From: an uncultured delta proteobacterium
GTDB lineage: Bacteria > Desulfobacterota > Desulfobacteria > Desulfobacterales > JAFDCJ01
Direction: 5' to 3'
Assembly: GCA_963769935.1 (NCBI GenBank)
Contig: CAVYNY010000010.1
Span: forward strand, 704,001 to 768,000
DNA length: 64,000 nt
Numbering within the stretch: the first letter of the stretch is position 1; every line of letters starts with the position of its first letter. Below the pieces are notes generated by a model. It saw only the letters and a program-made list of their open reading frames with translations. It did not search any database and was not told the origin of the DNA. Of this stretch, positions 48,777-62,780 are shown in pieces. Position numbers and translations under genes: made by a program.

Positions 48777-48971
48777 TGACAGCACTCCTTTCCAAAGGGT
48801 TTTAAAGTCGCATCATCTTAGTTAATAGACGTTTTTTTTGCAATAGATAAAGAATCCCGACCATCCCAACCACCTGAAAGGGGTTGATATAATCTACTCA
48901 ACTATGTATTGTTGACAGCTGTTAAGTCGATCGGTTTAGTGGATATTTTACAGAAATTCTGGTTGGACAAA

Positions 48972-50876
48972 ATGAATTCGATTCCGCAGTGGCGATTTCG
49001 CAAGATGCAGCCCGGGGAGATTAATGTCGATCCCATTGAAGGTGAGTTTTTCACCACCGAAGCCATCGGCAGCATCACCGATGCGCTGGTCCGCGAATCT
49101 ATTCAGAATTCTCTGGACGCGGCCGAAGGAGACGGGCCCGTAACGGTATGCTTTTCGTTCTATTCCGGTCCCAGCCGGGGATCCGCCCCCCGGGAGGTTA
49201 TCGAGACCTACCTGAACGGTCTCAGCCCCCATCTTCAGGCCAAACACTCCGGTTTGCAGGATCTGCCGTCCATCGCGGAGAACCTCGAGTATATCTTAAT
49301 TGAAGACTACGGCACCCGGGGCCTGCAGGGCGATATTCGCCAGTATGACGACCTGGATGATGACCTCCGCAAAAATGATTTTTACTATTTCTGGCGCAAT
49401 ATCGGCCGCACCCGCAAAGAGTCGGCCGATCTCGGCCGCTGGGGACTGGGCAAAACCGTCTTTCAGGCCGCCTCCCGGATAAACGCCTTCTACGGGATGA
49501 CCGTCCGCCGGGACGACGGCCGCGCGCTGTTGATGGGCCAATCCGTTTTAAAAATCCATAAAGTCGCTGGAACCCGGTATGCTCCCTACGGTTATTTCGG
49601 ATTGTTTGACGGTGAACTCGCTCTACCGGTGGAAGACCAGACCGATCTGGCAAACTTTGCCGACCGGTTTTTAATCGACCGGTTCGGCAAACCGGGCCTG
49701 ACTGTCCTGGTTCCTTACCCGGACAAGGAAATTAATGCACCGGAATGCGCCAGGTCCGTCATCAAACACTATTTTTTCCCAATTCTTGCGGGACGCTTAA
49801 TTGTTGTCGTTAAGCACGCCGGCAAAATATGGCAGCTCAACGCCGTCTCCCTTGATGATCTCCTTAAAAAATCACGCTTCCCCGAAAGCCAGGGCATGCT
49901 CGGCCTGCTGGATCTGGCCCGCTGGGCCATCAGACAGCCGCAAGAGAACTATATCAGCCTCCAAGAACCAATAACCGGCCGGGCTCCCAAACTCAGAGAA
50001 GATTTATTCAGCTCCCATGACCTGACGGAACTTAGAGAAAAATTTGCGAACGGAGAACGTCTGGCCTTTTACGTACCGGTCACCATCCGGCGGCAATTCA
50101 GCAAAGATTTAATGCACTCCGGTTTTACGCTGTACCTGGAGCGGGATGAAGGCCTACCCAAGGCCGAAGATCATTTCATCCGCCAGGGAATCACCATACC
50201 GGAGGTAACCGCTCTCAAGCACAACGGCGTGCGCGCCATTGTTTCCATTGCCGAGCATCAGCTGTCCGCCTTCCTGGGGGATGCCGAAAATCCGGCCCAC
50301 ACCGAATGGGAGCGCAACTCCAAAAAATTCAAAAAACGTTACAAACTGGGCCCCTCAACCCTGGATTTTGTAAAATCCAGCCCGCGGGAAATTGTGAAAA
50401 TCCTCATGCGGCCTCAAAAGGGCCGCGATGAAAATTTATTGAAGCACATTTTTTCCCTGCCGACGGATGCGGCCGCAGCCGGAAAAGCAGCCCCCAAAAG
50501 CGGAGGCGCTGCCGCCGGACGGGCTGCTGAAATCATGAGCAATGGTGAAATCATCGAATCCCGGGACGAAAATTATCTGCAGCTCAGCCCGATCAAAGGC
50601 GGCTTTAGCCTGGCCAAAAAAGCGAAATCGAAGCGGGTTCCCCGGTATATCACGGTCTGGTTGGCCTACGAGGTCCGCACGGGCAACCCGTTTAAAAAAT
50701 ATACTTCTCTGGATTTTGATGTCGGAAAGCCGCCGATATCCATCCGGGTAACCGGCGCCGGCCTATTATTAAACAAGCACAATGTGATCCAGATCGAGGT
50801 CCGGCAAGGAAATTTCAAGTTGACGGTTACCGGTTTTGATACCAATCGCGATCTCCGGGTAAAGACGAACCCCTAA
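48972..50876 (+). CDS. GHKL (Hsp90/MutL/MORC-like) ATPase-domain protein of unknown function
   Basis: LVRESIQNSLDA (ExxxN..DA), IEDYGTRGL (DxGxG-like), LGRWGLGK (G2). Confidence 0.8.
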   Translation: MNSIPQWRFRKMQPGEINVDPIEGEFFTTEAIGSITDALVRESIQNSLDAAEGDGPVTVCFSFYSGPSRGSAPREVIETYLNGLSPHLQAKHSGLQDLPSIAENLEYILIEDYGTRGLQGDIRQYDDLDDDLRKNDFYYFWRNIGRTRKESADLGRWGLGKTVFQAASRINAFYGMTVRRDDGRALLMGQSVLKIHKVAGTRYAPYGYFGLFDGELALPVEDQTDLANFADRFLIDRFGKPGLTVLVPYPDKEINAPECARSVIKHYFFPILAGRLIVVVKHAGKIWQLNAVSLDDLLKKSRFPESQGMLGLLDLARWAIRQPQENYISLQEPITGRAPKLREDLFSSHDLTELREKFANGERLAFYVPVTIRRQFSKDLMHSGFTLYLERDEGLPKAEDHFIRQGITIPEVTALKHNGVRAIVSIAEHQLSAFLGDAENPAHTEWERNSKKFKKRYKLGPSTLDFVKSSPREIVKILMRPQKGRDENLLKHIFSLPTDAAAAGKAAPKSGGAAAGRAAEIMSNGEIIESRDENYLQLSPIKGGFSLAKKAKSKRVPRYITVWLAYEVRTGNPFKKYTSLDFDVGKPPISIRVTGAGLLLNKHNVIQIEVRQGNFKLTVTGFDTNRDLRVKTNP

Positions 50877-50970
50877 TTAATCCGCCCTGAAAAATTGCGT
50901 ATTCAGGGTTTTGAAATATTCAATCTAAATTGTAGAAAGTCGCTGGATTAAAGGTCCGGCGGATTAATTA
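50874..50970 (-). mobile_element. 97-bp MITE, copy 3 (inverted relative to copies 1 and 2)
   Basis: TAATTAATCCGCCCTGAAAAA...AAGGTCCGGCGGATTAATTA is the reverse complement of the copy 1/2 ends. Confidence 0.85.
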
Positions 50971-50972
50971 TT

Positions 50973-51734
50973 ATGATACGCAAGTTCAACTACACCGGAA
51001 GAAAAAAAATCAGACGCTCGGACGTGAGCGTTGATCTGATGCGGGATGATGACGGCCGCCGGTATTTTAACATCGGTCTTCATCTGGCCGATATGGAGCT
51101 GCCGGAAAATGCCCGGATTTACGTCGAAGCCTATCACCGCTCCGGCTACCAGCGATTTGATTACGGAACCGCACAAAAGATGAGAATTCCATCGGATCGC
51201 AGGCTGGACGATATTTCAGAGTCGGTCACTCCGCTTTTCCGGGTCAAAGTCGTCGATAAAACCGCCGCCCACGGCCGGATACTGGCCTCGGTCGACAAAA
51301 TCCGCCCGGCCAGCGTCGACTTTCAGCCGGCGGACAGCCGGGCCCTGCTGTTCGTCGAGTACGACGATCTAGGCCATCGGATCTGGCAGCTCGACCTTGA
51401 CGGAGACTGGCCGGTTCTGAAATTAAATCAGGAAGTTGATGAAATCAGCCAGATCGCGGTCTCGGACAATCGTTTTTCCACCCTGGTGTACCCGGAAGTG
51501 TTGCGTCAGATTTTAACCCGCATTTTAATCGAAGATGAACACACAGATCCCGAATGCGATGACGACTGGCCCAGCCTCTGGCTGAAACTGGCCTGCACCC
51601 TGCCCGGCATGTCGGCACCCCAGTCGACCTCCAAGGCGGACCGGCAGGCCTGGATCGAAAATGCCGTGGAGGCATTTTGTGCCAATTTTGAGGTGCTGGA
51701 TAAATTCCATCAGGCTATGCAGATTGCCGGCTGA
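50973..51734 (+). CDS. Hypothetical protein, second gene of the GHKL operon
   Basis: 253-aa intact ORF; no family recognised. Confidence 0.8.
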   Translation: MIRKFNYTGRKKIRRSDVSVDLMRDDDGRRYFNIGLHLADMELPENARIYVEAYHRSGYQRFDYGTAQKMRIPSDRRLDDISESVTPLFRVKVVDKTAAHGRILASVDKIRPASVDFQPADSRALLFVEYDDLGHRIWQLDLDGDWPVLKLNQEVDEISQIAVSDNRFSTLVYPEVLRQILTRILIEDEHTDPECDDDWPSLWLKLACTLPGMSAPQSTSKADRQAWIENAVEAFCANFEVLDKFHQAMQIAG

Positions 51735-51830
51735 AAAAAAATTAAAATTTTTATTTGATTTAAGCTTTTTCTTAATTGGACACGGATAAACACGGATTGC
51801 ACAGATATATTTTCGGGGATCAGAGGCGGC

Positions 51831-51907
51831 TAAGCAACGTATCGTAAGGGCGGGCTTTACGCCCGTCCGGACTGGGTACATAATCCTGAAAATTGCTCAA
51901 TTCAGGT
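51831..51907 (+). repeat. GTAG-type REP-containing element, copy 2
   Basis: TAAGCAACGTATCGTAAGGGCGG...TCAATTCAGGT; matches 14422-14497. Confidence 0.75.
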
Positions 51908-51933
51908 AGGCGTTAAACCTGGAGATTTAGATA

Positions 51934-52653
51934 TTGAGAAATTTAACCCATAAAGGCGTCGAACAATTTCGCAAATATCTGGCTGAACTCCGGCAGGGTT
52001 CTCAAAATCCACCACCCTACGGCCTGTTGGAGAATCCGGAATTTTCAGCTCCGCTCGAGGGGGATGCCGGAATCGAGCAGCGAACTTTCGGGACCCGGCT
52101 GCAGCTGGCGCAGTATCTGGCCGAAGTGCTGGACGGAGCTGAAAATGACGGCCTGGAAAGCGATATCGGCCTGTGGAGCTGGCTGTCCCTGTTTTATTTC
52201 GACCAGGTGTGCCCGGCGGAGGAAAACGGCCTGCGCAAGCCCGGCCGGGACTATCGCCATATCCTGGAACCGGGCTATCCCAACGGTCATCGCCACCTGC
52301 TGGCCGGCGCCTGGCTGGTCTACTCGGTATACGGCCTGGGGGATGAACTGAGCAGGCTGCTGTTGTGGACCCCGCTGCATCTGGAAAGCAAGTTTCATCA
52401 TGAACTTGCAGTCAGGCAAACCCTGATTACGAATAAGGGTATTCTGGAGGCCGCCGATAAAATGTATTTCCGGGAATCGGAGGGCCATCCCCACAAAGGG
52501 GCGCTGGTGAAAAAACAGGTCCCGGGGACCTTGCAGCGGTTTATCGATGTCGTCCAGCAGCTGGATCTGACCTACGACCTGTACAGCATGCGCGGGGAGG
52601 AAATCCTCGCGCTGCTCCCGCCTGAATTTGATAAATGGAAAATAAGGCCATAA
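51934..52653 (+). CDS. Hypothetical protein, third gene of the GHKL operon
   Basis: 239-aa ORF, TTG start with GGAG RBS; no family recognised. Confidence 0.8.
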   Translation: MRNLTHKGVEQFRKYLAELRQGSQNPPPYGLLENPEFSAPLEGDAGIEQRTFGTRLQLAQYLAEVLDGAENDGLESDIGLWSWLSLFYFDQVCPAEENGLRKPGRDYRHILEPGYPNGHRHLLAGAWLVYSVYGLGDELSRLLLWTPLHLESKFHHELAVRQTLITNKGILEAADKMYFRESEGHPHKGALVKKQVPGTLQRFIDVVQQLDLTYDLYSMRGEEILALLPPEFDKWKIRP

Positions 52654-52942
52654 ATTCACCGACAAGATTCAACGCGACTTCCGAGGCCGTGTTTGGAATA
52701 AGTGGCCGCTGCGTGGCCGTTGTTGGAGCAGGATGGGGCGGCAAAGTAAATTCTAATCCAGCTGCATCAGAAGGTTTTGTGAGACAATAAAATCTCAAAT
52801 TTCAATTCAGCAGGTAATTTTCGCAAAATCAGTCCCGCCATCGCGAGCTCAGGCGAGGTAAACCGGATTCTCGATACCCTGCTGCTAAACGCCTATTCCC
52901 CCCCTCTATTTCACGGTTAACGCATCAATGGGGTTGTTGATG

Positions 52943-53027
52943 TATTATCCGCTCAAGATTTTTTTGAATTGCACCGATATAGCGATTTACAGACCTGAAT
53001 GATCTATCTTTCAGGACGGATTAATTA
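52943..53027 (+). mobile_element. Degenerate copy 4 of the 97-bp MITE
   Basis: Right end CCTGAATGATCTATCTTTCAGGACGGATTAATTA resembles copy 1; left end decayed (TATTATCCGC). Confidence 0.55.
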
Positions 53028-53059
53028 ATGCGCCAAATACATCAATTCCAGGAGCAAAA

Positions 53060-54117: not shown

Positions 54118-56571
54118 ATGAAAGCATACGAAAAGCTCGGGGCTTTTTATATCGGCAAATTGTACGACATGGCCTCCCAACAGCTTAAAGACGATCTCGT
54201 GCTCTATGATTCCAAGGATCTCAACACCCACGCCGTCATCATCGGCATGACCGGCAGCGGCAAGACCGGCCTGGCAATTGCATTGCTGGAAGAGGCCTTG
54301 ATTGACCATATTCCCGTAATCGCCATCGATCCCAAAGGCGATCTGCCCAATTTGCTGCTGACCTTTCCCCACTTGCAGGCCGACGATTTTCGCCCCTGGA
54401 TCAACGAGCAGGACGCACTCTACGCCGGTCTCAGCCCGGATCAGTTTGCCGCCCAACAGGCGGCCCTATGGCAAGAAGGACTGGCAAGCTGGGACCAGGA
54501 TGGCGAGCGCATTGCCCGCCTGAAGGCCGGTGCCGATTTTACCGTCTACACACCGGGCAGCAGTTCCGGAACACCGGTCAGCGTCCTGCGAAACTTTGCC
54601 CCCCCGGCCGCCGACATCATGGAGGAAAAAGACCTGCTGCGCGAGCGGATTCAGAGTACGGTCACCGCCCTGCTGGCCTTGCTGGGTATTGAGGCCGATC
54701 CCATCACCAGCCGGGAGCACATCCTGTTGTCCAATATCATTGAGTCTTCATGGGCGGCGGGCAAAGGGCTGGATCTGGCCGGCATGATCCGCGCCGTCCA
54801 GACGCCGCCGTTCGAGCGCATCGGCATTATGGATCTGGAAGCGTTCTACCCTCCCAGGGACCGTTTTGAACTGGCCATGCGCTTGAACAACCTGCTGGCC
54901 GCACCGGGATTCGAGGCCTGGATGGAAGGCGACCCCATCAATATCGGCCGCCTGCTTTACAGCGATCAGGGCCGGCCCCGGGCGTCGATTTTTTCCATCA
55001 GTCACCTGGCGGATTCGGAAAGGATGTTTTTCGTCTCGGTGCTCTTAAACGAAATTCTGGCCTGGATGCGGACCCAACCCGGCACCACCAGCCTGCGGGC
55101 CGTTTTATATATGGATGAAATCTTCGGCTACTTTCCGCCGGTTAAAAATCCACCCTCCAAGGCACCGCTTCTCACACTGCTCAAACAGGCCCGCGCCTTT
55201 GGGCTCGGGATTGTGCTTGCCACGCAAAACCCGGTGGACCTGGATTACAAGGGACTTTCCAATACGGGCTCCTGGTTCATCGGTCGTCTGCAAACCGAAC
55301 GGGACAAAGCCAGGGTGCTGGAAGGGCTTGAAGGTGCCGCTGCCGGCACCGGGTTCAATCGGGCCGGGATGGAGGAGATTCTGGCCGGTCTGGGCCGGCG
55401 CGTGTTTTTGCTTAACAATGTCCATGAAAACCGGCCGGTTACTTTTCAGACGCGCTGGGCACTGTCCTATCTGCGGGGTCCCATGACCCGCGAACAGATT
55501 AAAAAACTGACTGCCGACAGCAATACTTGGGCCGCACAGGCAGCTTCACCGGCGCCGGAAGATACATCCGCCGTGTTGAAAGCCCCCGTTACGGCAGCCC
55601 CGGCTGCCCGACCGGAACCGCTCTTAAACAAGCCGCCGGTCATGCCGCCGGATCTCAAGGCTTTTTATCTGCCGGCCTCCGGCGGCGGCCAGGGACTCGA
55701 GTATCGACCGGCGGCGGTCGGCTGGGTCGAAGTCCACTATTCCAGCGCCGGCTATAACCTGTCCACCTCCGCCAAGCTGGCCCTGGCCGCCATGCTGGAG
55801 GAAGGGCCGGTGCCACTGGATTGGGACCTGGCCCAGCAAATCGCCCTGGATCCGGCTGATCTGGAAACCGAGCCCCTGGCCGGGTCAAGTTTCGCCGAAC
55901 TGCCGGCGACAGCTAAAAATGCGAAAAATTATAACAAGTGGGCCAAGGATTTTATGCGCTGGGTTCGTCAGAATCGCCCGCTGGTCATTTATAACTCCCA
56001 ACGTTTCGGGTTGTCCAGCAGCCCAAGGGAATCCAAGCCCGAATTTTTGGCGCGCCTGTCCCAGGCCGCACGGGAAAAGCGCGATCTGGAAGTCGAGAAA
56101 CTGCGCAGCAAATACAGCCCTAAATTCAACACCCTAAACAATCGCCTGATGCGGGCCGAGCAGGCTGTCAGGCGTGAAAAGGAACAGGCCCAGTCAAGTA
56201 AAATTCAAACGGCAATTTCCTTCGGCACCGCGATTCTCGGTGCGTTCATGGGACGCAAAGCCGTCAGCGCCGGCTCTGCCTCACGCTTCGGCACCGCCAT
56301 GCGATCCGCCAGTCGCATACGCAAGGAGTCCATGGATATCGACCGGGCCCAGGAGACGCTCGACGCCACCCGCCGGCAGCTGGAAGAACTCGACAAGCAG
56401 TTCCAGGAGGATGTTGAAGGCACCGAAGCCGCTTTTGACCCTGAAAGGGAGGCCATCCGGGAAGTTCTCGTCAAACCGAATACCAGCGACCTGGCACTGG
56501 CGTTCTTTGGCCTGGTCTGGCTGCCCTACCGCAGGGATGCGAGCGGCCGGTCGGCCCCGGACTGGTTATAA
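54118..56571 (+). CDS. HerA/FtsK-like P-loop ATPase (DUF87/DUF853-like) with a C-terminal coiled coil
   Basis: Walker A GMTGSGKT, IDPKGD, Walker B LYMDE, QARAFG, LATQNPVDLDYK; GGAGG RBS. Confidence 0.9.
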   Translation: MKAYEKLGAFYIGKLYDMASQQLKDDLVLYDSKDLNTHAVIIGMTGSGKTGLAIALLEEALIDHIPVIAIDPKGDLPNLLLTFPHLQADDFRPWINEQDALYAGLSPDQFAAQQAALWQEGLASWDQDGERIARLKAGADFTVYTPGSSSGTPVSVLRNFAPPAADIMEEKDLLRERIQSTVTALLALLGIEADPITSREHILLSNIIESSWAAGKGLDLAGMIRAVQTPPFERIGIMDLEAFYPPRDRFELAMRLNNLLAAPGFEAWMEGDPINIGRLLYSDQGRPRASIFSISHLADSERMFFVSVLLNEILAWMRTQPGTTSLRAVLYMDEIFGYFPPVKNPPSKAPLLTLLKQARAFGLGIVLATQNPVDLDYKGLSNTGSWFIGRLQTERDKARVLEGLEGAAAGTGFNRAGMEEILAGLGRRVFLLNNVHENRPVTFQTRWALSYLRGPMTREQIKKLTADSNTWAAQAASPAPEDTSAVLKAPVTAAPAARPEPLLNKPPVMPPDLKAFYLPASGGGQGLEYRPAAVGWVEVHYSSAGYNLSTSAKLALAAMLEEGPVPLDWDLAQQIALDPADLETEPLAGSSFAELPATAKNAKNYNKWAKDFMRWVRQNRPLVIYNSQRFGLSSSPRESKPEFLARLSQAAREKRDLEVEKLRSKYSPKFNTLNNRLMRAEQAVRREKEQAQSSKIQTAISFGTAILGAFMGRKAVSAGSASRFGTAMRSASRIRKESMDIDRAQETLDATRRQLEELDKQFQEDVEGTEAAFDPEREAIREVLVKPNTSDLALAFFGLVWLPYRRDASGRSAPDWL

Positions 56572-56801
56572 ATAGCCCACTTCAAGATCCCCGATTTTTT
56601 AATGATCGCCGTAGTCTTCAGGAGGAGTTATCTAATTTATTCGCAACTTTTATTCCGATAATAAGAAATCTCTTCATTCAATGAGCCAAGGGGTCAATTA
56701 AAAGCAACTTGTTATTTTATGCACTCGGCTTTAGGTCAGATTTGTTTGATCCGAGGCTGTCAACATCATTGAAAAACGTTCAGGACGACACAGCAGCCGT
56801 A

Positions 56802-57773
56802 TCAGCCACATGTTTGAACGTTAACCACCAATGCCATATCCGAATTTTCTATGTTGTTTTTGTCAAATTGCCACATCCAGATGGAACTCTTGTACCAAAT
56901 AATTCTCTGCGGCCAGCAATAATCCGTGAGCAGAAAAATTACAGCCAGGACTATTCTCTCCACATTCCACTTAAACCGATGTGTACCAAAATGAGTCGGC
57001 TCCAACACAGAGGTCATGTAATAGTCCATGGTCGTATCCAATCGATGTTCCAATTCGAAGTATTCCTTGGCGTTCTTAACAAGTTGGTCTGTTTCGCCAT
57101 CCGGATAATATCCGCTATGAAAGGTATCCAGCAGGTAAATATAATACATGGTTTTGAGTTTCTTGATGCTCATCTTTTGCCGGAGAATATTTCGTCTTTG
57201 ATGAAGGCAAGATATGAAAACCTTTTGCGATTTGCTATCGGGGCAAATCAGTTTGTACGCCAAAGAAAACATATCTGAATAAATTTCATCTTGAGCAGAG
57301 ATTTTTTCTCTGTATTTCATGGGGACATAATGTTCTACCGTATCCCAGAAGGTAACCGCATCAAATTTCCCATATAGTTTTTTACGCAATAGCTCATCTT
57401 TGTCGATATCTTTCCAATTTATTCATACTACATCCAGGCCTCTTGACCTGCAAACTTCAACCTGCACCCCTGTGATATTTATACCTACGACATTCATGCC
57501 TTTTAGGTGTAAATAATCCAACCAATCACCGCAGCCACAGCCTATATCTATCACCCACATGCCGGGCTCAAGATTCAACTTTTTGATTGCGTATTCGAAC
57601 TTGTCACTTTGTGCCTTTTCTCGCGATTTAAAATAATCGCCATTATAAAAATTAAAACCGTAATCAAGCCCTTGACCGAATAGCGAGTCATTAAAAAATG
57701 CACTAACCACATATCCACGTTGTATTCTTTTCTCCGGATTGAAGACTTCTTGCCATAGTGTATCATGGTTCAT
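56802..57773 (-). pseudogene. Cyclopropane-fatty-acid-synthase-like SAM methyltransferase interrupted by an in-frame TGA at 57423-57425
   Basis: AQSDKFEYAIKKLNLEPGMWVIDIGCGCG, GINITGVQV, then TGA, then in the same frame INWKDI...GKFDAVTFWDTVEHY. Confidence 0.7.
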
Positions 57774-58149
57774 ACCTATTGGTTAGCGAGGCCTACAAAA
57801 GGAATTATTGATTTTTAAAAATTAGGGCGAACCCCAGATGTTGGGGGCGGTCTTTTTCTCTGCAACCATTTGATACATTGAGAATAACCACGGTTCGGGC
57901 AAGGTTGGAATATCATCTACGTATCTGAAATTTGCTGATTTTCCATGTATTCTCAATATATCACCACCACCCGGAATTATCTTTTCGATTGACTAAACCT
58001 CATTAGATTCGTTATAAATCCCCTTCAGCTATTTCTGTTTCTCCTACCCCAGCGGACCTGAAGCGATTTTCTATTTCCAGAATCGAATCCGAATTCTCTT
58101 TAACTTCACATTTGACGTTAAATACATTGAATTTGTTAAGGTTTTTCGG

Positions 58150-61100
58150 ATGACATCCCAAATTGAAATCCCGGTAAAGATTACAAAACCAAGAATGGAT
58201 TTGACCTTGAATAGGGAAAGCCTGTTCGCTCTCCTGGATAAATATCGAGAATATCCAGTGATCTGGGTCGTCGGACCCGCAGGATCGGGAAAAACCTCGC
58301 TGGTATCAAGTTACATCGAACAAAGAAAAATTCCATATTTATGGTACAAGGTCGATGAAACCGACGCTGATGCCGCGAACGTATTTTTTTATCTTCGTCT
58401 TGGCGCGAAAACTGCCTCACTCCGAAAAAAATTTGGTCTTCCGCTGTTCACTCCGGAATATGCTTTGGGCCTTCCTGCATTTACGAGGCGATTTTTCGAA
58501 ATTCTGTTTGAAGAACTCGGAAAGCCTTTGATGCTTGTGTTGGATAATTTTCAGAAATCGGCGAAAGGTGCTCTGCCTGAAATCATCCGTAATGCACTAT
58601 CAGTTGTTCCCCAAGGCATAACGCTCGTTGTTATAAGCCGAACCAAACCGCCCCCGCAGATGGCACGCGCAATAGCTAACCAAAAAATGCAAATTGTGGG
58701 GTGGGAGGATCTTAAACTAAGCTTTGATGAAACCACATTGCTTGTAAAGCGAGTCCATCAAAAAGATCTTTCAAATTCGACGGTCCATAAACTCTATAAA
58801 AAAGTCGATGGTTGGATAGCAGGGCGAAATTTTTGTTGTCTCAAACGGATATAAAGAAGCTGCACCCACAAATTCTGCAATGTGATATCTGCAGATTATT
58901 TTTGATTATTTTGCAAACGAAGTGTTTGAAAATGTCCCTGAAGAAATCCAAAATTTTCTTGTGGCAACATCGATGCTCTCCCGATGTGGGTCGCGGAAAT
59001 GGCCCAGGCCTTAACCGGTCACAGTGAATCTGAAAACATCCTGGAAATGCTTTATTCGGATAATTTTTTTACATTCAAACACAGAGGCAATTCGGATTTT
59101 TATAATTACCATGCACTTTTTCGAGAGTTTCTTATTCCAAGGGCAAATAAACGGTTTTCGGCTGAGGTTCATACTAAATTAAAAAGCAGGGCCGCCACGT
59201 TATTGGAGTCTATCGGAGACATAGAGAATGCAGCAGCGCTTTACCGTCAGATTGGAGATGATACTAAATTCATAAATTTGATTTTGCGGAATACCCCAAA
59301 TCTATTGGAACAAGGTAGACATAAAACTGTTGAAGATTGGATAACAAGCTTGCCCGATAAGGCAGTTGATTCGAATTCGTGGTTACTGTACTGGTTGGGA
59401 AAGTGTAAAGTCGCCCTTCAAACCATCGCAAAGCCGTCCTATTTTCGAAAGAGCCTTAAAACAGTTTGAAGCCCACCAAGATCCTCAGGGAATTTTCCTT
59501 GCCCTGTCAGGCGTTTTCCAGTCGATAATCTATTCTTTCGATAAGTTTGACTTATTCGATCAGTGGATTCCAGAAGTTGAAAAATTCTGCCACAGTTACC
59601 CGGTTTTTCCATCGCAGCAAGTTGAGGCATTAATCACATCAGATATGCTGTACGCTTTTATGCTGAGACAAAGCAATCACCCCGACTTCTCAAGGTGGGA
59701 AAACAGGAGTTTAATGCTTATCGAGAACAATCTTTCATTGCGGCTTAAAATGCAGTTGTTACTTCCCCTTTTATAACATCGAATTTTTTCCGGAAAATTG
59801 GCAGATGCCCGAAACATTATCGAAATACTTGATGGTTTAATTTCATCTCTCAATGAATCTCTCATTGGTTGAAATTACAATGGGTGACGCCAAAGCACTT
59901 TTTAATTGGCTAATTACTCGGGTTCAACGCTTGTAAAAAATTCGTCAACAAGTCGATAGACTTGGCTTTAAACAATGGTATCCACACATTGTCTTTATTT
60001 TTAAATGGTCACAATGTGGCAAGATTGCTAAGTTGTGGGGAAAATTCTAAAGCCGATAAAATCTTAAAGTCGATAAAAGCAGATCTGAGCCAAATGGGAG
60101 CTTGGAATAAAAAATACTACCATTATCTTTGTCTATGGAGAGCCCTCATTGCCAGGGACTTGGATGAAGCGGAAGCTCAATCCAGGCTCGCTTTAGCTCA
60201 TGGTGAAATCGCCGGTATGCCGCAGACGATGGCAATTGCCTGCTGGGGCAGAGCTATTGTCTTGCAACTAGAGGGAAAAGAACAAACTGCAGTAAAAATG
60301 TTAGCGGATGCCTTAGATCTTTGCGAAATATATGACATTCGCCAGGTTAAATTTGGCTGTCTGCTCACAGAAGCCCGATTTGCGTTCGATCGGGACGATC
60401 GGCCAGCTGGTTTGAACGCGCTGCAGCGAGCATTTTCGGTGGCAAGCCAGAATTCCTATTACAACACCTATTTCTGGAGACAGGATGATATCGCGGACTC
60501 TCGAAAAAGCACTTGAGGCCGGTATCTGCGAAAATCACATGAGAAATTCATCTGCAGACGACGTCTTTATCCGCCGGATAATTACATTCATTTGGTAAAT
60601 TGGCCGTGGCCCATCCGGATATTCACGCTTGGACGGTTGGAAATCCAAACGAATGGAACACCGCTGAAATTTAAAAGCAAAGCCCCTAAAAAGCCCCAGC
60701 ACCTGCTCAAGACCGTGGCAGCTCTTGGCGGCCGCGAAGTGTCCAATGATCTTATCCTTGACGCACTATGGCCGGAGCTGGATGGCGATGCAGCGCACAG
60801 CGCGTTTACGAGCTGTTTGCACCGCTTGAGAAAACTGCTGGATAATGAACAAGCCATTCGAGTTCAGGATGGAAAAATCTCTTTTAATAGCAAAATTTGC
60901 TGGCTTGACCTTTGGCCATATGAGAAATTGATCCGCCAGGCGGAGTCCCTCTGGTTGGATACAACCGATAAAAATGGGAGCTCAGAGGCTGTTAAACTTA
61001 CCAGAAAAAATCATGGCTCAATACAATGGAGTTTTCCTGCCCGATGATTCCAGTGCCTCTGGATGATTACCCATGCGTGAAGGCCTCACCAGCAATTTCT

Positions 61101-61424
61101 GGTTGCCTTCGACCCCTAATCCAAAATTACGAAGCTGCCCAAAAGTGGGATAAAGCTGTATTGGCCTTTACTCGGGGCATCGATGTCGATCCTCTGGCCG
61201 AGGATTTTTACCGTGGCCTGATGCGCTGTTTTCAACGACTCAAGCGACCATCGGAAATCATATCAACCTACCGTATCTGTCAAACCAATCTGTCCACTCA
61301 CGCCGGCCTGAAACCATCTCAGGAAACGGTCGATCTTTTCACTTTTCGCTCATTTAGCTGTTGGCTGTATCCACACTGTTATCAACTATTTCCCCAAATA
61401 GTTAGATCTACAGATTTGATATAG
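58150..61424 (+). CDS. MalT-like ATP-dependent regulator (STAND ATPase, TPR, C-terminal winged helix and BTAD), split by many frameshifts or stops
   Basis: GPAGSGKTSLV, LVLDNF, VISRTKP, YNYHALFREFL, IFTLGRLEI, LWPELDGDAA...LHRLRKLL, DPLAEDFYRGLMRC. Confidence 0.82.
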
Positions 61425-61606
61425 TCATTATCCCGCCGACGACCCATTCAACATTTTTTTGCTATCAGTGACCGATCTGTGACCCCCGCGATGCTAAACA
61501 TTTAATCCGATCGAGCTTATTTTTCGAAGCTAAAACGAATTGAGATGGCGGCAAATCTTTACCGGTTGCCGATTCAAGTTCTTACAATCCTTGGTGAGAT
61601 AGGCCA

Positions 61607-62468
61607 ATGGATAGAGAAATATCAATTGACCGATTGCATGCGTCATCGCAAGCAAGGGAAAAAATCAATGCATTTAGTTACTTGGAGCTACCTATCAAAT
61701 GCCCGATAATCATCTCTCTTACCATTTTCCTCTCATTTGTCGCTTCAACCGTTACAGCCCGCCAAAGCATATTTTATCCAAATTTCGAAGTCTGTATTAA
61801 TTATGCGGATAGAGAAGATATTGAACTTGCATTAGGTGCCGTCCAAAAAACATACGATTTTTTTATGTCTATCGGATATTCAAAAAAATACCCTCTGTGG
61901 ATTTTTTTTCAGGAAAAGGTTGAGATTGAAACTGTGACCGGTGAGTTAATTCGTGTATACGGCAAGCTCAACAAGGATAATCAAATTTATTTAACCGATT
62001 GGAATGAACCCTGGCTGACCAAACAAAACCCATATGGTTTGCAAATGAACAAGGATTTTTACGAAAGTTTAATTCCTCAGAAATTGCACATTTTATTGCT
62101 GAAAAAATCGTCGGCCGCAAAATCGAAAACACCCTTTCCGAATATATCGCCTACGTTGTTCAGCTATCACGGAAGTACCGCCCACTATGCGGCAGGAAAT
62201 TTTAGGCCAGCGTCACCTAACGGCCTTTAAAACCGAAGAAATCGATCTTGATATAATGCTGTTTGACCCCGTGATTTTTGGCTTCAAATCGTACCTTCAT
62301 TGCATGCAGAGCAGGGGACAATATCTGAAAGAAAGTGTCTGCAGCATCATCAGGGAACCCGACAGTATCGCTTACTGGCGATTTCGTCCGAGAATTATTT
62401 CGAATCTCAAGCGTGCAGCTAATCATGATTCTTTCAGCAGTTTCGTAAAACCCAATGATCACATATAG
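61607..62468 (+). CDS. Hypothetical exported protein, frameshifted
   Basis: Hydrophobic signal-like segment; overlapping fragments 61607-62230 and 62187-62468. Confidence 0.5.
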
Positions 62469-62780
62469 CTATTTTGCAGAAAAGGGAAAATGGCGGTCTC
62501 TCATCTCAACAAAGGGGGAAAACCAAATGAAAGCGGTCAACCTCAGTTTGCCTTCAATCGGAGAAATTGCGGAATCGATCAGAAATATCAAAAGTCCTTT
62601 TGGCTCTGGTATGAAAAATTGGCCTCATTTTGTGACCGGCACCTTACCGCCGATTGGATGGATAAAGTCCGTCAAGATCCTGATAAATGGCCTTATTATT
62701 AATCGCTTCTGCAGAACCACCATTTTTCTTCCTCGGCATATTTGGCCTCCATTATCTTTATGTTTAGGTTGCCTGGTGGC

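Follow-up and report, generated by a model that had tools for sequence, protein, structure and literature searches.

Mza is a five-gene system composed of a GHKL ATPase, a Z1 helicase, a DUF4420 protein, an AIPR protein and a C5 methylase. For the related MORC and paraMORC ATPases, a role in restriction-like defence gated by cytosine methylation was proposed in 2008 (PMC2292703), and the available text of a 2026 preprint still treats methylation-gated MORC/paraMORC defence as a proposal. The paraMORC2 family was described in the same 2008 text, as far as it was accessible, as GHKL ATPases bearing ExxxH within the C-terminal portion of their S5 domain (PMC2292703). According to the accessible parts of the respective papers, anti-phage activity was reported for VcSduA (Shedu type I-D, paraMORC3), whose GHKL catalytic Glu is required for phage protection (PMC12137116), and for Tiamat (bioRxiv 10.64898/2026.09.30.754977). 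PDC-M33 is one of the PDC systems compiled by Payne et al. (bioRxiv 10.1101/2024.01.29.577857); the available text of this preprint states that PDC systems were selected because they lie within BREX, DISARM or type I restriction-modification (RM) systems and lists 145 of them as untested. The name PDC-M33 is absent from its main text, and Tables S3-8 may describe the system further. Our literature search, from which subscription papers were mostly excluded, found no paper on PDC-M33 or DUF6339. Here, we analysed a three-gene locus, A-B-C, found in a 64,000-nucleotide (nt) stretch of DNA hereafter called the window (contig CAVYNY010000010.1 of assembly GCA_963769935.1, positions 704,001 to 768,000 of the forward strand), from an uncultured delta proteobacterium of the order Desulfobacterales. 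Based on sequence comparisons, this trio is a divergent branch of the catalogued candidate PDC-M33, and not a wholly undescribed system.

The PADLOC models of PDC-M33 (PDLC04582-04587) have lengths of 627, 289 and 247-346 positions for A, B and C, respectively. In hidden Markov model (HMM) searches, A matches the PDC-M33A model with an E-value of 2.4e-18, which is the sole PADLOC match of the trio, and its HHalign score with three true PDC-M33 members is 99.8%. True M33A members match the model far more strongly (E ~1e-88 to 1e-92). These members (L132-L134) have the same A-B-C gene order, and their B and C genes match M33B and M33C/DUF6339. None of 25 B proteins of this family matches the M33B model; a profile-profile alignment of B with M33B is not significant (E 0.03-0.05, probability ~1%) and is collinear over the whole length, the two proteins having the same size and position. 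Similarly, the M33C and DUF6339 models gave no direct match for the window C protein or 88 relatives. HHalign of C with DUF6339/PDC-M33C gave 80% and an E-value of 1.4e-5 over 147 columns with an eight-row template, against 0.25 for the cross controls and 0.2 for a three-row template. C thus appears to be a remote homologue of PDC-M33C/DUF6339. In the A tree, the window family forms a separate branch beside the M33 and Z1-linked types. Because B and C do not match the M33B/C models, PADLOC is not expected to call the window locus. The preliminary description of this DNA had found no named system for the trio and had listed a hit to a described system as evidence against its proposal; the matches of A and, remotely, of C in the same gene order count in part as such a hit and do not support the absence of a named system, although PDC-M33 is itself no more than a candidate. 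A search with the M33A model of 301 genomes in each of two phyla returned seven genomes each, the true members being three of these. In P0455 (476 residues), a PDC-M33B homologue is naturally fused to DUF6339.

We searched species-representative genomes with B as the seed and collected 34 loci, from Desulfobacterales, Aminicenantes, Nitrospirota, Bacteroidota, Verrucomicrobiota, Lentisphaerota, Gammaproteobacteria and methanogenic archaea. The order and strand of A-B-C are kept in 34/34 loci (tblastn), including some that are contig-cut or frameshifted and three in which only the last ~110 residues of A are present; the preliminary description had proposed this conservation as a check. Among the best 80 of 525 metagenome loci, a set of closest relatives that over-represents the window's clade, C is near full length in 79, with B present in 77 of these and A in 56, many contigs ending within the trio. 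The co-occurrence of the three genes is far beyond chance. The families are large, with 2,113 matches for A and 1,970 clusters at 50% identity for C (E up to 0.001).

Analyses of the genetic environments revealed a C5 methyltransferase gene next to 16 of the 34 loci and a Vsr gene next to 12, in a Pfam scan that covered 114 of 480 neighbouring open reading frames (ORFs), mostly the nearest ones. All six PDC-M33-type loci (L132-L134 and three plasmids with DUF6339) lie beside dcm. No dcm or vsr gene was found in the 80 closest metagenome loci, most of which are short. Phylogenies were computed by quick IQ-TREE runs, with SH-aLRT (Shimodaira-Hasegawa-like approximate likelihood ratio test) support only, and methylase labels came from purpose-made dcm and vsr HMMs, some dcm matches being fragments (L025, L031 and L033). 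The C tree was built from 48 loci that had either sufficient flanking sequence or a dcm/vsr match; the other 71 of 119 rows had flanks shorter than 2.5 kb and no such match. The 27 loci devoid of dcm and vsr make up one side of a branch (SH-aLRT 97), which amounts to one change, compared with 15.9 in shuffles. When the A tree is rooted on M33/Z1-type sequences, methylase-linked rows enclose 24 of 25 methylase-free rows (support 97), and the loss of the methylase is therefore derived. One locus (L018) falls in the methylase-free clade in the C tree and outside it in the A tree, and the methylase gene of another (L116) is 2.6 kb away and may be unrelated. We found no match to PF00145 (C5 methyltransferase) in the genome that harbours the window, an assembly of 41 contigs that is 96.7% complete, and the same holds for 7 of 10 other genomes with a window-type trio, within the limits set by incomplete assemblies. 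In most hosts, the lost methylase is not replaced in trans. The lack of an adjacent methyltransferase gene, already pointed out in the preliminary description, is thus the mark of a derived clade.

The same branch is marked by changes at a site of C. Most methylase-linked relatives harbour a G-D-x-x-E motif where the window protein has SKFHH. Asp or Glu at position 153 is kept in 20/21 methylase-linked loci and 2/27 methylase-free loci; in the same two sets, E156 is found in 17 and 1 loci, R201 in 18 and 3, and H156 in 0 and 22, respectively. The methylase-linked pattern is found in 121 of 147 representatives, the window type being a minority, and the DUF6339-type rows have an Asp aligned with position 153 in seven of eight cases. 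One explanation casts the trio as the restriction enzyme cognate to the C5 methylase, and the methylase-free clade as a version disarmed by the loss of D153 and E156 that retains a residual DNA-binding role. It agrees with the distribution of residue 153, including the DUF6339-type Asp, and with the argument that a host can survive the loss of the methylase only when its unmethylated DNA is no longer cut. Nevertheless, no nuclease fold was recognised in C, and all three genes, including the ATPase motifs of A, are under purifying selection, with dN/dS ratios (non-synonymous over synonymous substitution rates) of 0.06-0.32 against eight relatives with measurable dS. Moreover, the clade has acquired new conserved His residues in C (H109, H119, H155 and H156), which suggests change rather than decay. 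We consider a disarmed enzyme distinctly improbable.

The A family has conserved the GHKL motif set ExxxN, DxGxG and GxxGxG. In 22 aligned A proteins, R41, E42, N46, D49, D112, G117, G155, G158, G160, E439, A442 and H443 are invariant; among 20 divergent sequences, R41, E42 and Q45 are invariant and N46 and D49 are found in at least 90%. We take the catalytic role of E42 and the Mg-binding role of N46 from established GHKL biochemistry. A regular expression for ExxxH has matches in 6 of 11 distant relatives. The preliminary description had noted a full GHKL motif set, and the motifs are indeed present and conserved, but profile support for the assignment is thin: no Pfam match was obtained for 22 family members, one of 20 distant relatives matches HATPase_c_3 (E 1e-4), and PDB profile searches with A gave no significant GHKL match. 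A match of a widened A profile to 6anz (E 0.002) covered only profile positions 195-277 and concerns an uncharacterised protein. ESM Atlas searches with A returned unnamed clusters only, the top one with HTH_3 on 18% of its members. HMM searches with Pfam, NCBIfam and PADLOC profiles revealed no PD-(D/E)xK nuclease fused to A, whose C-terminal domain has an isoelectric point of 10.4. In three close loci of Verrucomicrobia (L025:4387-4890, L033:9517-10017 and L031:9515-9978), B and C are preceded by the C-terminal ~110 residues of A alone, with a gene for a Schlafen-group-3 helicase upstream. This single event hints at an association of the C-terminal domain with B and C, and not with the ATPase.

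The AlphaFold2 model of B has a predicted local distance difference test (pLDDT) score of 88.8. Residues 9-118 form an immunoglobulin (Ig)/Fn3-like beta-sandwich (best Z 8.2, root mean square deviation (rmsd) 2.9, 96 aligned residues, with many tied rows), followed by an acidic, helical C-terminal half. The basic N-terminal peptide, MIRKFNYTGR, is among the most conserved segments of B. It has little order in the model of the monomer (pLDDT 58), as might be the case for a docking peptide.

The C protein is modelled as mostly helical (pLDDT 93.8). Residues R120, H121, R161, K187 (a His in the window protein), R202, Q209 and D215 are conserved across 181 rows. Foldseek searches with the model gave no match in PDB or BFVD, and ESM Atlas scores stayed below 0.8; this lack of a structural match does not prove a new fold. 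The best VIA match (Z 4.1, rmsd 3.1 over 66 residues) was to AAA+ lid-like helices at residues 151-235. We rejected an assignment to the AAA+ lid family on this basis, the helix arrangement being a common one. None of the three proteins has a Pfam, NCBIfam or PHROG match or an informative PDB sequence match. Some C homologues have additional regions: P0244 and P0310 carry a C-terminal low-complexity tail that ends in a zinc ribbon (by Pfam for P0244 and by the same motif for P0310), and P0325 has an N-terminal domain of ~130 residues with no Pfam match.

These features are consistent with the trio being an ATP-driven, DNA-acting anti-phage or anti-plasmid complex, for which methylation would be an optional, ancestral gate; we judge this reading to be evenly poised between right and wrong. 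Precedents are GHKL-containing defences such as VcSduA and the MORC/paraMORC proposal. By analogy with other GHKL-S5 ATPases, A would dimerise on ATP and close as a DNA clamp. B likely uses its conserved N-terminal peptide and its Ig-like domain to dock on the basic C-terminal domain of A while holding C, which in turn likely reads or attacks DNA through its conserved Arg, His and Lys residues. The preliminary description had likewise proposed B as an adaptor and C as a DNA-recognition or effector subunit, roles that are still conjectural. Ancestrally, self DNA would be marked with 5-methylcytosine (5mC) by the C5 methyltransferase encoded next to the trio, and Vsr would repair the T:G mismatches caused by 5mC. 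The methylase-free branch likely works without the 5mC mark. Since the methylase is gone and the G-D-x-x-E/R201 site of C is remodelled, self and non-self would be told apart in this clade by something other than host 5mC, the candidate cues being phage DNA structure, phage modification or an infection trigger. A more specific version sees the trio as a paraMORC2 clamp with an Ig-like adaptor and an effector whose fold is unsolved, in the course of a switch from methylation-gated restriction to methylation-independent sensing; the switch would lie at one site of C, from G-D-x-x-E and R201 to a His-rich patch. We propose it tentatively, as rather doubtful in its entirety.

The neighbourhoods of the relatives bear on the proposed defence role. 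Loci without dcm often border genes of type I RM (L011 and L145), type III (L012 and L103) or type IIG systems (L013), as well as McrBC (L057), Mrr (L067), SNF2 helicases (L053 and L068) and toxin-antitoxin (TA) modules. Complete EcoRII-type sets of dcm, vsr and restriction endonuclease (REase) genes are found in two loci (L030 and L034), and on three plasmids an M33-type trio is next to a complete type II RM system. The trio might therefore be an accessory or guard of a host RM enzyme (type I, II, III, IIG or IV) and would then act in trans, in the way that EcoprrI is guarded by PrrC. Besides these arrangements, the way in which the PDC set was picked, the presence of an N6-methyltransferase gene elsewhere on the same contig of the host genome (311-position match, E 1e-103) and methylases that look swapped between loci (the Dcm proteins of L135 and L136 are 66% identical and their C proteins far apart) fit such a role. 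Nevertheless, in many loci with dcm and vsr (L016, L021, L024 and L027-L029) the scanned neighbours include no further REase gene, and a shared island explains the adjacency equally well. We know of no RM guard with the A-B-C architecture, and a guard role is in our view unlikely.

The trio is an accessory unit with a patchy distribution. Of 151 genomes of the host's order, seven have C, as do two of the four in its genus. In a congener that is 97% complete (G015), the site is empty: the two genes bordering the trio in the window, an ABM gene and a putative lipoprotein gene, are adjacent to each other. No relative of C was found in a viral contig collection. The only plasmid record with the window's branch of the trio is L116 (NZ_CP140867.1), a 1.3-Mb Rhizobium leguminosarum plasmid whose A protein is 27% identical to that of the window; the record is unannotated, and based on sequence its trio neighbours are a vWA/VIT-like gene and a helix-turn-helix gene. 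The distribution is relevant to the idea that the trio is a DNA-maintenance module, that is, a MutL-like clamp that once aided Vsr repair of 5mC deamination and is now domesticated for topology, repair or nucleoid structure. A has the GHKL-S5 layout of MutL, which, according to the available text of PMC2292703, works with Vsr in very-short-patch repair; Vsr genes adjoin 12/34 loci, no effector domain was found, and the window's subclade, with dS up to ~1.2, lies among housekeeping genes. A maintenance role sits poorly with the few genomes of the order that have C, the empty site in the congener and the scatter over distant phyla and archaea. The trio is also kept without Vsr or Dcm, often beside RM or TA genes. 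We consider this explanation quite unlikely.

Several observations weigh against our proposal of an anti-phage or anti-plasmid complex. PDC-M33 itself is only a candidate, whose function was never tested. The GHKL assignment of A is motif-based. No nuclease or toxin domain was recognised in A, B or C in profile and structure searches, which scarcely covered the helical half of B. The rate of defence neighbours is given without a background control, and the loss of the methylase and the change in C are a single evolutionary event, so that their correlation is a lead and not independent evidence. Lastly, the window copy and its nine-member subclade are found among housekeeping genes, in partly stable synteny and with the GC content of their flanks, rather than in a defence island. 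The preliminary description had placed the trio between housekeeping-type genes, as we also find, and had proposed defence association as a check; the tie to RM genes is found in the relatives and not in the window copy. Its view of a unit headed by a GHKL-type ATPase as a candidate defence system agrees with the conservation, patchiness and RM linkage seen in relatives, but such a unit was already catalogued.

The features of the locus are listed in Table 1. The three intact, co-oriented genes and all the motifs quoted in the preliminary description are present. The TTG start codon of C is 9 nt downstream of GGAG, with an in-frame stop two codons upstream of the TTG, and a TTG occurs at almost the same position in the closest relative (L035). 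The GC content of the trio is 51-56%, as in the flanks, and A is found in a single copy in its genome. The gaps of 96 nt between A and B and 199 nt between B and C are larger than in most relatives, whose genes overlap or are separated by at most ~30 nt. The A-B gap is filled by a dispersed repeat with 78 blastn matches in the genome, 53 of them near full length, and the contig of one relative skips 72 nt of it. The host repeats in both gaps, the TTG start of C and the frameshifted copies in some assemblies might mark the window copy as the decaying remnant of a mobile cassette. With three intact ORFs, dN/dS ratios of 0.17-0.24 against the closest relative and invariant catalytic motifs, this is very hard to credit. 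The scan for promoters and terminators was at chance level, with 5 promoter-like sites against 4.1 expected in shuffles. Metatranscriptome contigs from three runs of one study partly cover the A, B and C genes of close relatives; they reveal neither strand nor co-transcription and possibly represent DNA, and were not used as evidence.

Table 1. Features of the A-B-C locus and its surroundings (positions refer to the window)
Feature	Position	Strand	Remarks
Promoter-like site	48884-48912	+	9/12 match, 60 nt upstream of A
Gene A	48972-50876	+	634 residues, ATG start; intact ORF
A, GHKL motif I RESIQNSLDA	49092-49121	+	Predicted catalytic E42 and Mg-binding N46
A, ExxxH motif E439-N-P-A-H443	50286-50300	+	paraMORC2 motif of Iyer et al.
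A, predicted domains			GHKL-type ATPase ~1-290, predicted S5/transducer with ExxxH, low-complexity linker ~498-534, basic C-terminal domain ~535-634 (residues); boundaries inferred from alignment
Dispersed host repeat	50874-50970	.	~95 nt, 13-nt terminal inverted arms; fills A-B gap; no system component
Gene B	50973-51734	+	253 residues; intact ORF; positional counterpart of PDC-M33B
Shorter dispersed repeat	51735-51933		15 genome matches
Gene C	51934-52653	+	239 residues, TTG start; intact ORF
C, residues 152-156 SKFHH	52387-52401	+	G-D-x-x-E in most methylase-linked relatives
C, R201 replaced by Q	52534-52536	+	Remodelled together with residues 152-156
Shorter dispersed repeat	52654-53059		17 genome matches
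HerA/DUF87-type ATPase gene	54118-56571	+	817 residues; conserved in congeners with or without the trio
Low-GC region	56500-62500		GC mostly 0.39-0.42; fragmented methyltransferase-like gene on minus strand
Presumed MalT-like regulator gene	58150-61424		P-loop, TPR-like and BTAD-like parts split over several ORFs; labels from sequence

The HerA/DUF87-type gene that starts ~1.5 kb downstream of the trio qualifies the earlier statement that no helicase gene is adjacent, but it is part of the host synteny. We rejected it as a fourth component, as it is present at the empty site of the relative without the trio. In that relative (G015), a DUF3754 gene, missing in the window, lies between the lipoprotein and HerA genes. 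In another genome (G099), the HerA/DUF87 gene is directly upstream of A. The low-GC region further downstream represents either decayed acquired DNA or assembly frameshifts.

For the methylase-free branch, the present analysis contributes the rooted tree, the empty site, the selection test and the D153/E156/R201 change. The trios with and without a methylase, which differ at a defined site of C, provide a natural control and a small test case for the MORC-like proposal. If a switch did take place, paired trios would be a direct test of the use of DNA methylation by prokaryotic MORC-like ATPases. Whatever its function, C is a target for structural studies, having a confident model and no match among solved or viral structures. 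Furthermore, the family is large and the PADLOC models miss its B and C genes, so that it is likely to be undercounted when defence systems are inventoried in sediment Desulfobacterales and in other uncultured lineages.

Among the known systems, VcSduA and Tiamat share with the trio an ATP-dependent GHKL clamp proposed, in the accessible text for these two, to control a DNA-attacking module. They are single-gene systems with a fused PD-(D/E)xK nuclease, whereas A ends in a basic domain of ~100 residues with no such match and its partners are separate proteins of other folds. In one relative (L137), a second GHKL protein, which matches HATPase_c_3 and type II REase models, is encoded between dcm and A (L137:5083-6942), in a co-oriented vsr-dcm-GHKL-A-B-C operon.

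A resembles the paraMORC2 proteins by its GHKL motifs and ExxxH, its membership resting on the motif, with an S5 boundary inferred from alignment. Distant A-like relatives adjoin genes for a Z1 helicase, a DUF4420 nuclease and Dcm, a context described in the available text of PMC2292703, which describes neither B nor C. Z1 and Dcm are encoded next to an A-like gene in L138, and Z1, DUF4420 and Dcm in L142 and L143. In contrast, the window locus has no helicase, restriction endonuclease-fold nuclease or methylase gene.

With Mza, the trio shares a GHKL ATPase linked to a C5 methylase, and some A-like relatives adjoin genes that match Mza components: the Z1 helicases of L138, L142 and L143 match MzaC, and the DUF4420 proteins of L142 and L143 match MzaD. 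A DUF6339-like third gene is kept in L142. These three loci suggest that the trio plugs into Mza-like operons. However, A matches no Mza model, B and C are unrelated to the Mza families by HMM, and Z1, DUF4420, AIPR and methylase genes are absent from the window locus.

The closest counterpart is PDC-M33. Its typical members adjoin dcm and vsr, whereas the window clade is devoid of the methylase; furthermore, the score of A is far below those of true members, and B and C miss the M33B/C models. Nevertheless, both consist of three genes of similar size in the same order, with homologous A proteins and, to all appearances, remotely homologous C proteins.

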